A stretch of 64,000 nucleotides of DNA from a virus (IMGVR_UViG_3300028549_001457:192001-256000); one strand, 5' to 3'. Positions 6,030 to 61,829 are shown, counted from the stretch's first letter. Notes: generated by a model from the sequence alone, not told the origin. Translations and numbers: made by a program.

Positions 6030-6331
6030 GCGCTCATGGCGGAATCGGTAGACGCCTTGGACTTCACGTAAGTATTACATGTAGAGCACTTAGTAGGAAA
6101 CTGCTGATGTGAATCCCATCAAATTCGGTGAATACCCCAAGTGGACAACGCCGAGCCAAGCCTGGAGACAGGAAGGTGTAGAGACTAGACGGTGGGGGCC
6201 TAAGGATACTAAATATCTATGGTCAAGGCATAGTCCAGCGCACAACAGGAAACTGGCCATAGCAATATGGAGTGTGATGAAAATCCAATGCCCGTAAGGG
6301 CGTCCCGGTTCGAGTCCGGGTGGGCGCACCA
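6030..6331 (+). tRNA. trnL: tRNA-Leu(UAA) interrupted by a group I intron (exons 6030-6064 and 6280-6331)
   Basis: GCGCTCA/TGGGCGC + ACCA; spliced loop CTT^AAAA in stem TTGGA/TCCAA; Leu-type D-arm and long variable arm; mature length 87 nt. Confidence 0.9.
6065..6279 (+). mobile_element. ORF-less self-splicing group I intron (trnL-UAA/IC3-like), 215 nt
   Basis: P TCAAATTCGGTGAA, Q AACGCCGAGCCAAG, R GGTGTAGAGACTAGACGG, S AAGGCATAGTCC; P3 CCCATC/GGTGGG, P7 GACTA/TAGTC, P1 CTT/GAG with U.G, terminal G at 6279. Confidence 0.9.
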
Positions 6332-8694: not shown

Positions 8695-8851
8695 TGCTAG
8701 TGCCCCGCCGTAGTCACGATGTACCCCTAACAGTGGAAACACTGGGCCTGGAAGCGAGTCCCTTCGGAAAAGCTACTAACTGAGAATAAATCCTACTGTA
8801 ACCAATCAGGTGGACGAAAACAGTCACCCTGTAGCACTAGCAACCTTTTTT
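8695..8851 (+). ncRNA. candidate ~150-nt structured RNA C
   Basis: 9-bp closing stem TGCTAGTGC/GCACTAGCA, internal CAGTG-GAAA-CACTG and GGTGGAC/GTCACC hairpins, T-tract. Confidence 0.45.
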
Positions 8852-8853
8852 AT

Positions 8854-8881
8854 GTCTCCCGTAAAGGGAGTGGATTGAAAC
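8854..8881 (+). repeat. solitary CRISPR-repeat-like unit 1
   Basis: GTCTCCCGTAAAGGGAGTGGATTGAAAC: hairpin plus the type I 3' handle TGGATTGAAAC; no array. Confidence 0.6.
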
Positions 8882-8981: not shown

Positions 8982-9056
8982 GCCGTAGTAGCTCAGGGGT
9001 AGAGCCCTGGTTTTGTAAACCAGTTGTCGGGGGTTCAAATCCCTCCTACGGCTCCA
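8982..9056 (+). tRNA. trnT: tRNA-Thr(UGU)
   Basis: GCCGTAG/CTACGGC + TCCA, CTGGT-TTTGTAA-ACCAG. Confidence 0.95.
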
Positions 9057-10227: not shown

Positions 10228-10301
10228 GCGGGTGTAACTCAGTGGTAGAGTGCTAGCTTCCAAGCTGGAAGTCGAGGGTTCAAATCCCTTCACCCGCTCC
10301 A
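10228..10301 (+). tRNA. trnG: tRNA-Gly(UCC)-like gene with 6-nt anticodon loop
   Basis: GCGGGTG/CACCCGC + TCCA; CTAGC-TTCCAA-GCTGG; total 74 nt. Confidence 0.8.
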
Positions 10302-21497: not shown

Positions 21498-22490
21498 ATG
21501 GCGGATGCTATTTCTTTTGACGAGAGTTTCTGGGTTGAAGAAATAGACCCCACAGACCCCGAATCGCTAAGTTCAGTTTCTGTGGATTATACACCAGCTT
21601 TCAATTTAGGGGTGTGTTTTAAAGACAACTTTGAGGTTTACTTAAAGTATCTAGCATTGTTGGATCCCCTTGAGGCAGACCTCCTTATCCTTTATTACTA
21701 TTGTGATAAGAAGGTTAAGGAAATAGCCAAGATTCTGAAGACTACACCTGTTAAAGTGTCAGGACTCATTAGTCAGGCTGAACAGCGTCTAGCTCTGTTA
21801 TTGCACATTAATTTACTCCTTACAACATCTGTTTTACAAGAGATAAACAAAGTAATAACTGCTGAGTATGATAGAGTTATCTTCAGGACCTTTCTGCGTG
21901 AGGTATCCCGCAGGCGCACCTCCCATGTTTTGGGATTGACATTTCACCAAGTTAGTTCCTCAATTAAACGTATCGTGGAAACTCTCTCTAAGAGTGAGTT
22001 GTCGCTTGAATTAAGGGATCTTATTAAGATTATATCCCCTAGTGTGGCATCCCCCCGAGAAACTCGCCAATTAGACCCTTCGGAGCGGGTTTGTGTTTTT
22101 GATGTTATCAGTTGCCCTCAACAAGTCTACGCTATTAGCACCCTCGCAAATCCTAAATTATCCTTGGGTAACTTTGGGGATTCCAGCACATCTCTTCTCC
22201 AAGAGTTCTCTGAGTTAGCTAACCAAGCATCCTATTTTTCAGTTAATCAAGCTATCCTGGCGCATCAACTTGGGGACTCTTCCGTAGATCTATGGGATTA
22301 CCTAGTGCCATCATTCATATCTAGACTTATTAGTGCCGATCAATTTGCGTATGTAACGCTCACAGAATCCGTTGAAATCCCTATTAATCCAGCTAAAACT
22401 GTTGTTTCTATCGTTAAGAAATCCCCTCCTCAAAAGGCCAGAAAAATAACCGTATCAAGACACTCCAAGGAAGTTTCCGCAGTAGTATAG
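21498..22490 (+). CDS. protein with sigma-region-4-like tandem HTH (putative transcription factor)
   Basis: LDPLEADLLILYYYCDKKVKEIAKILKTTPVKVSGLISQA, second HTH-like SRRRTSHVLGLTFHQV; GGAG RBS before ATG 21498. Confidence 0.55.
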   Translation: MADAISFDESFWVEEIDPTDPESLSSVSVDYTPAFNLGVCFKDNFEVYLKYLALLDPLEADLLILYYYCDKKVKEIAKILKTTPVKVSGLISQAEQRLALLLHINLLLTTSVLQEINKVITAEYDRVIFRTFLREVSRRRTSHVLGLTFHQVSSSIKRIVETLSKSELSLELRDLIKIISPSVASPRETRQLDPSERVCVFDVISCPQQVYAISTLANPKLSLGNFGDSSTSLLQEFSELANQASYFSVNQAILAHQLGDSSVDLWDYLVPSFISRLISADQFAYVTLTESVEIPINPAKTVVSIVKKSPPQKARKITVSRHSKEVSAVV

Positions 22491-59654: not shown

Positions 59655-59688
59655 GTTAACGTAGAATTTGGCGGTAAAAGGAACTAGG

Positions 59689-60048
59689 ATGAAACTTAGG
59701 TATGTATCAAAATTCAAAAATATGCGCCGACCTTACTATGGGGTGGTTAGGCTGAATGGTCCTAGTGCCACCCTCTTCCTATTCAGTCTGCGGGTATCTC
59801 GACAATTGGATCGCGGAAAGATTGATCCCTCTACCCTCATGAACTTTCGCCGGGCTCTCATGCGAATTGTGGGTGCTGAAAAAGAATATGACGGGTATAT
59901 CTATTATCCTCTAGATTCTTTCAAGACTCTTGAGGATCTCGCGGGTCAGATCCATTATTGTTCTGACAGATGGTGCGCGGGGAGGGCTGCTTCGGTTATT
60001 GCAGCCATCAACCACCTTCTCGAAAAGGGGGCGTTTAGTGCTAATTGA
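59689..60048 (+). CDS. hypothetical protein
   Basis: ATG 59689 downstream of the promoter copy at 59623. Confidence 0.55.
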   Translation: MKLRYVSKFKNMRRPYYGVVRLNGPSATLFLFSLRVSRQLDRGKIDPSTLMNFRRALMRIVGAEKEYDGYIYYPLDSFKTLEDLAGQIHYCSDRWCAGRAASVIAAINHLLEKGAFSAN

Positions 60049-60161
60049 GGGTCTATGTCCTTCCGTGGAGATTTTTGGGGGTGGATCTATTCAAAGTGGT
60101 CGGGTAGACCCCTGGAGATTCCCCCCGCAAACCCACTTCCGCACACTCACCCTGTGCGCGG

Positions 60162-60197
60162 GTCTCACCACCTAAACAGTGGTGAGTGGATTGAAAC
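60162..60197 (+). repeat. solitary CRISPR-repeat-like unit 2, followed by (AAAC)5
   Basis: GTCTCACCACCTAAACAGTGGTGAGTGGATTGAAAC, 36 nt, 8-bp stem CTCACCAC/GTGGTGAG. Confidence 0.65.
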
Positions 60198-60253
60198 AAA
60201 CAAACAAACAAACAAACAAGCATCTTGAAACTACCCTCTAACAGGGAGGATCT

Positions 60254-60571
60254 GTGAATTCAATTACAACTCCAACGCTCAAGGATCTACCCCCACCTCC
60301 TGAAAAGAAACACCTCAGACAGTTCTCGATCTGGTCTGAAGGGTATATGGCTTCAGGGGATAGAGCCACCGCTCAATACCTTGGCACCTCCTGGGGAGAA
60401 ACTTTTGAGGAAGCTTGTCAAAATTTTGCAACTCCAGAAGTCCAAAAACACTATGGGAGCTTCACCCCAAATCCCCCTGCACTTTGGGGGTGTAGGCTCT
60501 ATGATAATGAAGTAGATGCTAGGCGATTTGAGCATCGGTATGGGTTCTCAGAAGATAAATCTGGCTGGTAG
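60254..60571 (+). CDS. conserved phage hypothetical protein
   Basis: GGGAGG RBS; IWSEGY.ASG...WGCRLYDNE.DAR. Confidence 0.7.
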   Translation: MNSITTPTLKDLPPPPEKKHLRQFSIWSEGYMASGDRATAQYLGTSWGETFEEACQNFATPEVQKHYGSFTPNPPALWGCRLYDNEVDARRFEHRYGFSEDKSGW

Positions 60572-60594
60572 GTGGCTCAAAAAAAGGAGACCTG

Positions 60595-60921
60595 ATGACA
60601 CTGTTTATTAGAGATTCCAAGAACAAAACTCTAATAGAGTTCGAAGCTATCAAGAGGGAAGGAGAACTCGAACCCTCTGCCTGTTTGGACGTTACAGGTT
60701 ATTCCCGCTTCCTAATCCTCCATTCTCCTAGGGAGCAAGATAAGATTATAGAAATATTTAATAACCTAGATGAAATTCGAGGATGGTATTACGAATGGTA
60801 TCTTACAAATAGATCCAGACCGAGACCAGAAAACAAAGACGAAATGAAAATCCTTATTAGTTCTTTCCTCCTAGATTCTGGAGTATATGAACTAGACGGT
60901 GTACACTTAGTAGAAGATTAG
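60595..60921 (+). CDS. hypothetical protein flanked by 22-bp direct repeats
   Basis: GATAAATCTGGCTGGTAGGTGG at 60554-60575 and 60922-60943; AAGGAG RBS. Confidence 0.7.
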   Translation: MTLFIRDSKNKTLIEFEAIKREGELEPSACLDVTGYSRFLILHSPREQDKIIEIFNNLDEIRGWYYEWYLTNRSRPRPENKDEMKILISSFLLDSGVYELDGVHLVED

Positions 60922-60956
60922 GATAAATCTGGCTGGTAGGTGGATCTTTTTCTGAG

Positions 60957-61829
60957 TTAGGTAGAATGCTTTTGTGTGCATCCTAGGGACCAACCCTCTT
61001 GTATGGCTTTTTTACTTTCGGAAATAGTTACCATCCTGTTCTGGATCCCGTTAGTGACCCATACCCTCCCTTTACTATGAACATTTGTAATAAAATTCCC
61101 TTTAAGCCTTCCGGGGGACCATCCCAGAGTCACCATTTCCTCAACTTGATCAGGCGGTATTAATTTATCTTTTCCATTAAAGTTCATCCATTGATGACCT
61201 TTAGAAGAACTAAACTTAAAAATACGGCCAAGGGACCATCCTAAACTTAAATACTTGGGGACATCCCCCTCAGGGACCCCTTTCTCAACCCCGTCCTTAT
61301 TAATTCTAACTTTATTCACCATATTTTTTGGCCCTGCACCCACAGGTTTAAGCTCTTTCCGGAGTAACCTAGGATCATTACTTTGGACTCTCATACAGTT
61401 ATTAGTAGCATCACGGACCACTAGTGTGCCTTTTATACTAGGATTCGGGCTACCCACTGATTTTTTGAGAATCTCAGTTCTTATATCCGCATACTTACTT
61501 GAAAAAATACGCGCTTCTGCTTCGGATAACGTAACTGAGTGTCGGGATAACATAAACCATAATCCATATGCGACTCCTCTATTAGTCGGGAATGCCCTGT
61601 AAAGATAGTAATGTGCCATGAAATGATTTTGTAGAGATAAACAAACCCTATTCCAAGGATTCTTACTTAATTTAGAAAACTCGGGCCACATACATCGTGG
61701 GAGAATATGGTGTTGTTCCCCCCCAGTTTCATAGTGTAGTTGAGTGGTAACTAAATTAATATATTTAGCCACCCAAACTACCTCATCTGAAGTATTAAGC
61801 AATAAGGCCTCTAATTCCTGATTTGTCAT
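60957..61829 (-). CDS. free-standing HNH homing endonuclease (MobE-like) with C-terminal W.(T/N)NG...GW..GR repeats
   Basis: EQHHILPR...NRVCLSLQNHFMAHYYL; inverted orientation. Confidence 0.75.
   Translation of the reverse strand: MTNQELEALLLNTSDEVVWVAKYINLVTTQLHYETGGEQHHILPRCMWPEFSKLSKNPWNRVCLSLQNHFMAHYYLYRAFPTNRGVAYGLWFMLSRHSVTLSEAEARIFSSKYADIRTEILKKSVGSPNPSIKGTLVVRDATNNCMRVQSNDPRLLRKELKPVGAGPKNMVNKVRINKDGVEKGVPEGDVPKYLSLGWSLGRIFKFSSSKGHQWMNFNGKDKLIPPDQVEEMVTLGWSPGRLKGNFITNVHSKGRVWVTNGIQNRMVTISESKKAIQEGWSLGCTQKHST

Follow-up and report, generated by a model that had tools for sequence, protein, structure and literature searches.

The window analysed here, 64,000 nt long, comprises bases 192001-256000 of a 278,785-bp (279-kb) virus record that is 95% complete and has 45.5% G+C. 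The DNA runs containing the phage are labelled microbial mat metagenomes. Near the end of the window, a 205-nt gap (60049-60253) between two plus-strand ORFs carries a 36-nt element that we call unit B, and a SNF2-type helicase gene also lies upstream on the plus strand. The features of the locus, in window coordinates, are:

59668-60048, plus strand: upstream ORF without a family; 126 aa from the first in-frame start (public gene calls begin later, giving 119 aa)
60140-60158, plus strand: upstream hairpin CGCACA-CTCACCC-TGTGCG, predicted by folding
60162-60197, plus strand: unit B, a type I-C CRISPR repeat mimic by sequence, uniqueness, fold, I-C array ends and Cas5c substrate anatomy
60198-60217, plus strand: (AAAC)5 tract adjoining the 3' end of the repeat; counting the terminal AAAC of the repeat, there are 6.5 tandem units
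60218-60253, plus strand: remaining 5' UTR ahead of the downstream ORF, with AAGCATC (60218-24), TTGAAAC (60225-31) and the RBS GGGAGG (60244-49)
60254-60571, plus strand: downstream ORF of 105 aa, phrog_26055, a widespread small phage protein family of unassigned function with no known anti-CRISPR link

The original prediction described a 36-nt hairpin repeat mimic followed by (AAAC)5, AAGCATC and TTGAAAC, and exactly this sequence is present at 60162-60231. Unit B has a 2-nt 5' overhang, GT (60162-63), an 8-bp stem formed by CTCACCAC (60164-71) and GTGGTGAG (60179-86), a 7-nt loop, CTAAACA (60172-78), and an 11-nt 3' overhang, TGGATTGAAAC (60187-97). The 36-mer occurs once in the window at up to 3 mismatches, with 0 matches in 100 shuffles. 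Its hairpin alone folds at -12.1 kcal/mol (z -2.4) and is also predicted within its 131-nt and 205-nt context. Local alignment found no second repeat in the 120-nt flanks of unit B or of its relatives A and C, described below (p >= 0.39). Two candidates for such a repeat were rejected. The TTGAAAC at 60225-31 has no significant alignment to the repeat, which rules it out as a remnant and leaves a chance occurrence; a mini-array with a degenerate second repeat 3' of the AAAC tract likewise gave no significant alignment.

The downstream ORF starts with GTG at 60254, 56 nt from unit B. Directly upstream of unit B there is no recognisable promoter, and no terminator was found 3' of any unit. Since the upstream ORF is on the same strand, unit B is probably co-transcribed with its neighbours. 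No RNA run is listed among those that contain the locus; one run labelled RNA-Seq, which is probably DNA, contains a 222-nt contig identical to 60244-60464, outside unit B. No known acr or aca gene lies near unit B; the flanking small ORFs have no Pfam family and could be novel Acrs. One flanking ORF matches a PHROGs family without known function, and the weak PDB sequence matches of these ORFs include no anti-CRISPR. An Atlas search with the 105-aa ORF only returned clusters of unnamed phage proteins.

To find the source of the repeat, we searched prokaryotic genomes, one per species, for its end, GAGTGGATTGAAAC, occurring twice at array spacing. The original prediction would have failed had no host repeat shared the unit's end; instead at least 120 bacterial array loci carry it, and the four examined adjoin I-C cas genes. 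Among the matches listed, the array hosts are Thiothrix, Thiofilum, Methylococcaceae, Acidobacteriota, Myxococcota, Leptospiraceae, Elusimicrobia and others, and the consensus repeats are 32-37 nt long with the form GT(N)CTC-stem-loop-stem-GAG-TGGATTGAAAC. Arrays L113, L019 and L073 adjoin Cas5c, Cas8c, Cas7c, Cas4 and Cas1c, all far above curated cut-offs. A metagenome scan for CTCACC...GGTGAGTGGATTGAAAC led to a further array, L136, whose repeat shares the outer 8 and the last 17 nt of unit B and which is flanked by Cas7c, Cas4, Cas1c and Cas2 (above curated cut-offs). It is the closest array repeat among the matches listed, with the outer 25 of 36-37 nt in common (~70% identity). The L136 contig is present in one run only, and this run is unrelated to the phage samples. 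None of the 120 + 20 array loci listed has the full stem of unit B, and against the array repeats found, unit B falls below the SRUFinder rule, which asks for identity and coverage of 90% or more relative to a known repeat.

The likeness is closest in the parts of the repeat that are read by Cas5c. [quoted passage not shown] Repeats processed in this way are known from B. halodurans, S. mutans and D. vulgaris (PMC8524198). Units A, B and C each fold into a stem-loop with a 2-nt 5' overhang and 11 unpaired 3' nt, and in all three UGG stands directly 3' of the stem and the handle ends in AUUGAAAC/U. The handle is TGGATTGAAAC in units A and B and TGGATTGAAAT in unit C. For unit B, this anatomy predicts a Cas5c cut between 60186 and 60187 and hence a processed 5' end at 60187, 11 nt before the repeat end.

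Like Cas5c-processed I-C repeats, then, the phage units are stem-loops flanked by a 5' overhang of 2 nt and a 3' overhang of 11 nt, UGGAUUGAAAC, with UGG after the predicted cut site, and unit B in particular resembles a GAG-ended sub-family of 36-37 nt found in Thiotrichales, Methylococcales, Acidobacteriota, Myxococcota and others. Unlike them, the units are borne by a virus, lie outside arrays and have no spacers or leader. Their stem and loop lengths also depart from the canonical 7 bp and 5 nt (8/7 in B, 5/5 in A and 6/6 in C). The sampled array repeats mostly have 7-10-bp stems, and the comparison of hairpin lengths between solitary units and arrays is biased by the differing search patterns and thus indicative only.

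Rfam CRISPR-DR models respond weakly. CRISPR-DR9 gives 13.4 bits for unit B and 16.6 for unit A, and DR53 gives 15.0 bits for unit B when the opposite strand is read, against a gathering score of 45 that no CRISPR-DR model reaches anywhere in the window. The 14-mer end of the repeat is expected about 0.002 times per phage genome and was seen as two exact copies and a third with one change, all immediately 3' of a perfect stem, which excludes chance. By array ends, cas context and Cas5c anatomy, unit B is a type I-C CRISPR repeat mimic, since it retains exactly the parts that Cas5c reads. The original prediction had left the subtype at I-C, I-B or I-D-like; I-C stands and the other two fall away. 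The 6 exact matches to the 19-mer GTGGTGAGTGGATTGAAAC among viral contigs are all coding (peptide GGEWIET) and lack a hairpin, and we rejected them as relatives.

A script run over the whole phage genome found three intact units (A, B and C) and two decayed copies (D and E), all on the plus strand. The original prediction of a solitary unit is therefore right locally, within the 120-nt flanks, and wrong genome-wide; its author had also noticed unit A. Besides unit B, the copies are:

Window 8854-8881, plus strand: unit A, intact I-C mimic of 28 nt by sequence, with GT, stem CTCCC/GGGAG, loop GTAAA and handle TGGATTGAAAC
Genome 174756-174786, plus strand: unit C, intact I-C mimic of 31 nt by sequence, with stem CTCCCA/TGGGAG, loop CTAAAC and a handle ending in T
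Genome 22385-22421, plus strand: copy D, decayed, 5' arm lost; ends 11 nt before an ATG
Genome 266193-266211, plus strand: copy E, decayed, 5' arm lost; its handle abuts the ATG of a gene beginning MIKVSRIL

All five copies are on the same strand as the surrounding genes and tRNAs, and copies D and E resemble the 3' half of unit B (loop and 3' arm). At pairs 4 and 6 the stems of A, B and C vary but remain paired, and GT, the stem base CTC/GAG and the handle are constant. In a pair count made by script, pairs 1-5 are canonical by our own filter and carry no weight. Unit B is thus, on sequence grounds, one member of a small dispersed family of I-C repeat mimics in a cas-less jumbo phage.

Two of the intact units lie among RNA genes. 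Unit A is between the phage tmRNA (8294-8669) and a tRNA-Thr (8982-9056), 100 nt from that tRNA. The last base of unit C is position -1 of a tRNA-Ala(UGC) called by ARAGORN (L222 2788-2863), which as read from the sequence has a G3:U70 pair and an encoded CCA. The phage RNase P RNA begins 6 nt past the end of this tRNA, inside the tRNA cluster; it is a full-length RNA of bacterial class A on the plus strand (genome 174868-175209, L222 2869-3210; 268.5 bits, E 2e-87). The ncRNA island around unit A also holds a group I intron (6066-6259, 51 bits) and, at window 10228-10301, a tRNA-like gene with a 2-base anticodon call; the tag of the tmRNA reads AEDTMLLQAA. Small hairpins with a TCACC(C) loop precede both unit A and unit B (window 8800-8850 and 60135-60160) and have TCACCCTGT in common. 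The upstream 60 nt of the two units align with p 0.008, which is marginal after three comparisons.

Neither an array nor a cas gene had been seen in the window, and the same is true of the whole 279-kb record. Models of cas5c, cas7c, cas8c and cas6 found nothing at E <= 1 in this 95% complete sequence; as a positive control, the search recovered Cas5c in two array-bearing genomes. An array requires at least two repeats with spacers, and here the intact units are 26-51 kb apart.

The AAAC tract behind unit B is the only one in the phage genome. Tandem Repeats Finder (TRF) reports period 4, 6.5 copies and 100% match at 60194-60219, and the tract is predicted to be unpaired. The gap that includes it is identical base for base in 7 further assemblies from at least 6 samples, so that the tract is without visible hypervariability among 8 assemblies of a nearly clonal population. 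A single extra AAAC after GAAAC occurs in lone units elsewhere, two on metagenome contigs (L142, L152) and two in the related phages (L226, L225). By our own count, about 3 of the 17 viral units ending in GAAAC have the extra AAAC, against 0.07 expected, so duplication of the last four bases of the repeat seems to recur. The tract of unit B probably arose through such a duplication and is now fixed. The original prediction had argued for slippage from the AAGCA that follows both the tract and unit A. The sequences 3' of A and B (AAGCA...TACCCT) show no significant homology (p 0.25), and the tract is invariant in the 8 assemblies. Its view of the tract as a blank spacer, an ideal decoy guide, found no support either. 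A possible role of the tract is that of a structure-free track.

Comparable units occur in other phages. Scanning viral contigs with the pattern GTCTC, 10-26 nt, GAGTGGATTGAAA gave 67 loci, which include arrays and coding chance matches with 3-4-bp 'stems'. With added loci included, a script counted 36 distinct solitary hairpin units in viral contigs, with stems of at least 5 bp and many different sequences. The portal protein of our phage has 35% identity to its counterpart in a 485-kb uncultured phage and 37% to the one in an acidobacterium jumbo phage. The 485-kb virus record (G001) is probably a distant relative and has at least 5 units. In three of these (L225, L234 and L236), the ATG or GTG of an open frame follows 0-4 nt after the unit, and the 3' stem arm (GGGAG, GGAAG) is at the Shine-Dalgarno position, 11-15 nt before the start. 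A 147-kb relative (G002), two of whose proteins are 36-46% identical to those of our phage, has 4-5 units. Neither relative has Cas5c or Cas7c. The positions in our genome that correspond to the units of the 147-kb phage have none, so the units turn over. In a further phage, of 149 kb, a unit lies within a tRNA cluster; our pattern search of other viral contigs found no unit that abuts a tRNA as unit C does. Searches with the SNF2 helicase or the 126-aa ORF found no relatives, and homologues of the 105-aa ORF (39-45% identity) in other phages have no unit upstream.

Our preferred reading, with a probability of about 55%, is that the units are Racr-like decoys for the Cas5c and Cascade of the host. 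This reading draws on analogy with published viral solitary repeat units, of which 2,103 have been reported (PMC10651486). One of these, RacrIC1, inhibits type I-C and restores infection under I-C targeting; 11 nt separate it from the upstream gene acrIC5, with which it is co-transcribed (PMC10651486). Another, RacrIF1, forms aberrant complexes of Cas6f and Cas7f (PMC10651486). By analogy, the phage units would be transcribed together with their neighbours inside operons and tRNA clusters, and the Cas5c of the host would bind and cut their RNAs. The products would tie up Cas5c in complexes without a useful guide, and at unit B Cas7 might also polymerise on the unstructured AAAC-rich RNA downstream. 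Such sequestration would lower type I-C interference as it does for RacrIC1 and RacrIF1. As unit C ends exactly at +1 of the tRNA-Ala, RNase P acting on the joint precursor would release a repeat-only leader with a precise 3' end, ...UGGAUUGAAAU. The differing stems may broaden the range of Cas5c variants bound, or may block recombination between copies.

Several properties of unit B agree with those of RacrIC1 and other viral SRUs (Faure et al., 2019; Camara-Wilpert et al., 2023, PMC10651486). It is a single, intergenic repeat look-alike on a viral element, with no other repeat within 100 bp and no cas genes (in a 95% complete record). Like RacrIC1, it is of the type I-C kind, lies downstream of a gene on the same strand and preserves the hairpin and handle. 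Unlike RacrIC1, the phage units are putative Racrs, and they have ~70% identity to the array repeats found, compared with the >=90% of SRUFinder. They form a set of three intact and two decayed copies with differing stems, spread across 230 kb of one genome; two of them lie in tRNA/tmRNA clusters, and one of these two is precisely the 5' leader of a tRNA. At 28 and 31 nt, units A and C are shortened, and no recognisable acr is nearby. Such acr or aca neighbours of Racrs are frequent, not obligatory (PMC10651486).

The decoy reading has weak points. The 5- and 6-bp stems of A and C are shorter than the published 7-bp substrates and than nearly all sampled array repeats. Copies D and E are decayed, so not every copy is maintained, and the positions of the SRUs are not conserved between related phages. 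The low identity to arrays (~70%), the sub-threshold Rfam scores and the lack of a promoter or a recognisable acr/aca neighbour also weigh against it. We compared 2,618 spacers from the fetched arrays with the phage, and the matches, at most 18 nt long and at chance level, identified no host.

Of the alternatives, the one that survives best, though we still consider it unlikely, is that the units are neutral relics of past recombination with I-C arrays of the host or of copying within the genome, inactive and tolerated in intergenic DNA. The loss of the 5' arm in D and E, the non-orthologous positions between related phages and the failure to find a promoter, an acr neighbour or an RNA run with the locus all speak for this reading, and in a near-clonal population the identity across assemblies says little about selection. 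Against this, three units combine perfect stems of differing sequence with an intact 14-nt end, and A and C are shortened yet paired, unlike raw captured repeats. All five copies are on the transcribed strand, one unit ends exactly at the +1 of a tRNA, and related phages each keep several intact units.

Next comes the doubtful proposal that the repeats are signals in cis, positioned just ahead of RNA or ORF starts, and that the 5' end downstream is defined by host Cas5c or, at unit C, by RNase P. In a variant of it, cleavage frees or removes the RBS and couples expression of the downstream gene to an active I-C system. Much of the placement points this way: unit C ends at -1 of the tRNA-Ala, the handle of copy E abuts an ATG, copy D ends 11 nt before another, and three units of the 485-kb relative precede an ATG or GTG by 0-4 nt with a Shine-Dalgarno-like 3' arm. 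At our locus, the fold of the 205-nt gap pairs its 5' end with the GGGAGG of the ORF at 60254 and encloses unit B, but support for this long-range pairing is weak (z -2.2; ensemble frequency 0.004). The distances also speak against such a role, with 56 nt separating unit B from its start codon and 100 nt separating unit A from the next tRNA, and homologues of the 105-aa gene in other phages do without a unit. Relying on a defence enzyme of the host for normal expression would also be risky for a phage. For unit B itself, the case for a signal in cis is weak.

With the same low probability, the decoy and cis ideas might be joined: in a lineage of huge phages, I-C repeats could have become portable 5'-leader modules that sit immediately ahead of tRNA or ORF starts and are processed by host Cas5c and RNase P, whose RNA the phage itself encodes next to unit C. 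Such modules would yield precisely trimmed, repeat-only decoys from highly expressed tRNA precursors. Alternatively, they would turn on the gene behind them only where an I-C system is active, as a defence-sensing RNA switch rather than a simple sponge.

Ranking below these, and improbable in our view, is a role as guide-like RNAs (Cracr/crlRNA or anti-competitor), in which the host Cascade would load a repeat with its pseudo-spacer and, by partial pairing, silence a host cas or toxin promoter or a rival phage. Viral crlRNAs that reprogram Cas proteins are known, with some predicted for I-C, and a crlRNA may be one repeat-like unit plus a pseudo-spacer (bioRxiv 10.1101/2024.10.29.618823). In this respect the phage units are like Cracrs, being phage-borne and repeat-like, with non-repeat sequence downstream that could be loaded by Cas proteins. 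The 34 nt that follow the repeat, up to and including the second TTGAAAC, also have the length of a typical I-C spacer (33 nt in PMC8524198). The units are unlike Cracrs in that the fetched I-C loci gave no pseudo-spacer match to a cas or toxin promoter, none of the units is followed by a terminator, and neither a degenerate second repeat nor a pseudo-repeat was found. The spacer position of unit B is simple repeat, the first 20 'guide' bases being AAAC units, and the 'guide' of unit C is a tRNA. In 0.88 Mb of fetched I-C loci, which may not be those of the host, there was neither a seed of at least 12 nt nor a TTC-flanked seed of 9-11 nt, and the viral contigs contained no TTC + 16-nt match to the sequence downstream of unit A.

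Very improbable, finally, is that the units are handles for a phage-encoded RNA-binding protein (a RAMP-family Vipr or another phage RNase) rather than for host Cas proteins: published vrRNAs consist of 9-16 YNNGG repeats and a 3' tail, whereas no YNNGG tract flanks any unit on either side, a vrRNA-like tract lies separately at genome 180630-180684, and, in the segments that Cas5c reads, the units are base-for-base matches to host I-C repeats.

That phages carry lone type I-C repeats, and that such repeats act as anti-CRISPRs, has been published. In the literature searched, we found no description of several diversified, shortened copies in one cas-less jumbo phage, nor of a repeat copy serving precisely as the 5' leader of a tRNA next to the RNase P RNA of a phage. 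If the units are decoys, cas-less jumbo phages of environmental mats use RNA anti-CRISPRs, with several diversified copies per genome. RNA anti-CRISPRs could then diverge far beyond the 90% cut-off (to ~70% identity and 5-6-bp stems), and published censuses may undercount them for that reason. The three natural variants would mark what Cas5c may need, namely the stem base, UGG and handle, and the tRNA-leader copy would suggest a maturation route through RNase P that could be used for precisely ended decoy RNAs. If the units are relics, the finding is ordinary.

Two further observations concern the surroundings. A 108-aa ORF downstream of the locus (60595-60921) is missing from one metagenome variant (window 60576-60956 compared with L239), in which the repeat region is identical; the missing ORF adjoins a homing-endonuclease-like gene on the minus strand (60957-61829). 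The vrRNA-like tract is on the minus strand, ~11.3 kb before the window start, and 8 of its 9 consecutive 5-mers fit YNNGG (CACGG CGTGG TGCGG TAATG CAAGG CGTGG CGTGG TAAGG TAGGG); a terminator-like hairpin follows. It is the only such tract in the phage genome, and 10 shuffled genomes contained none. Its layout fits the published design of vrRNAs, and it may be a candidate guide for a phage Vipr.
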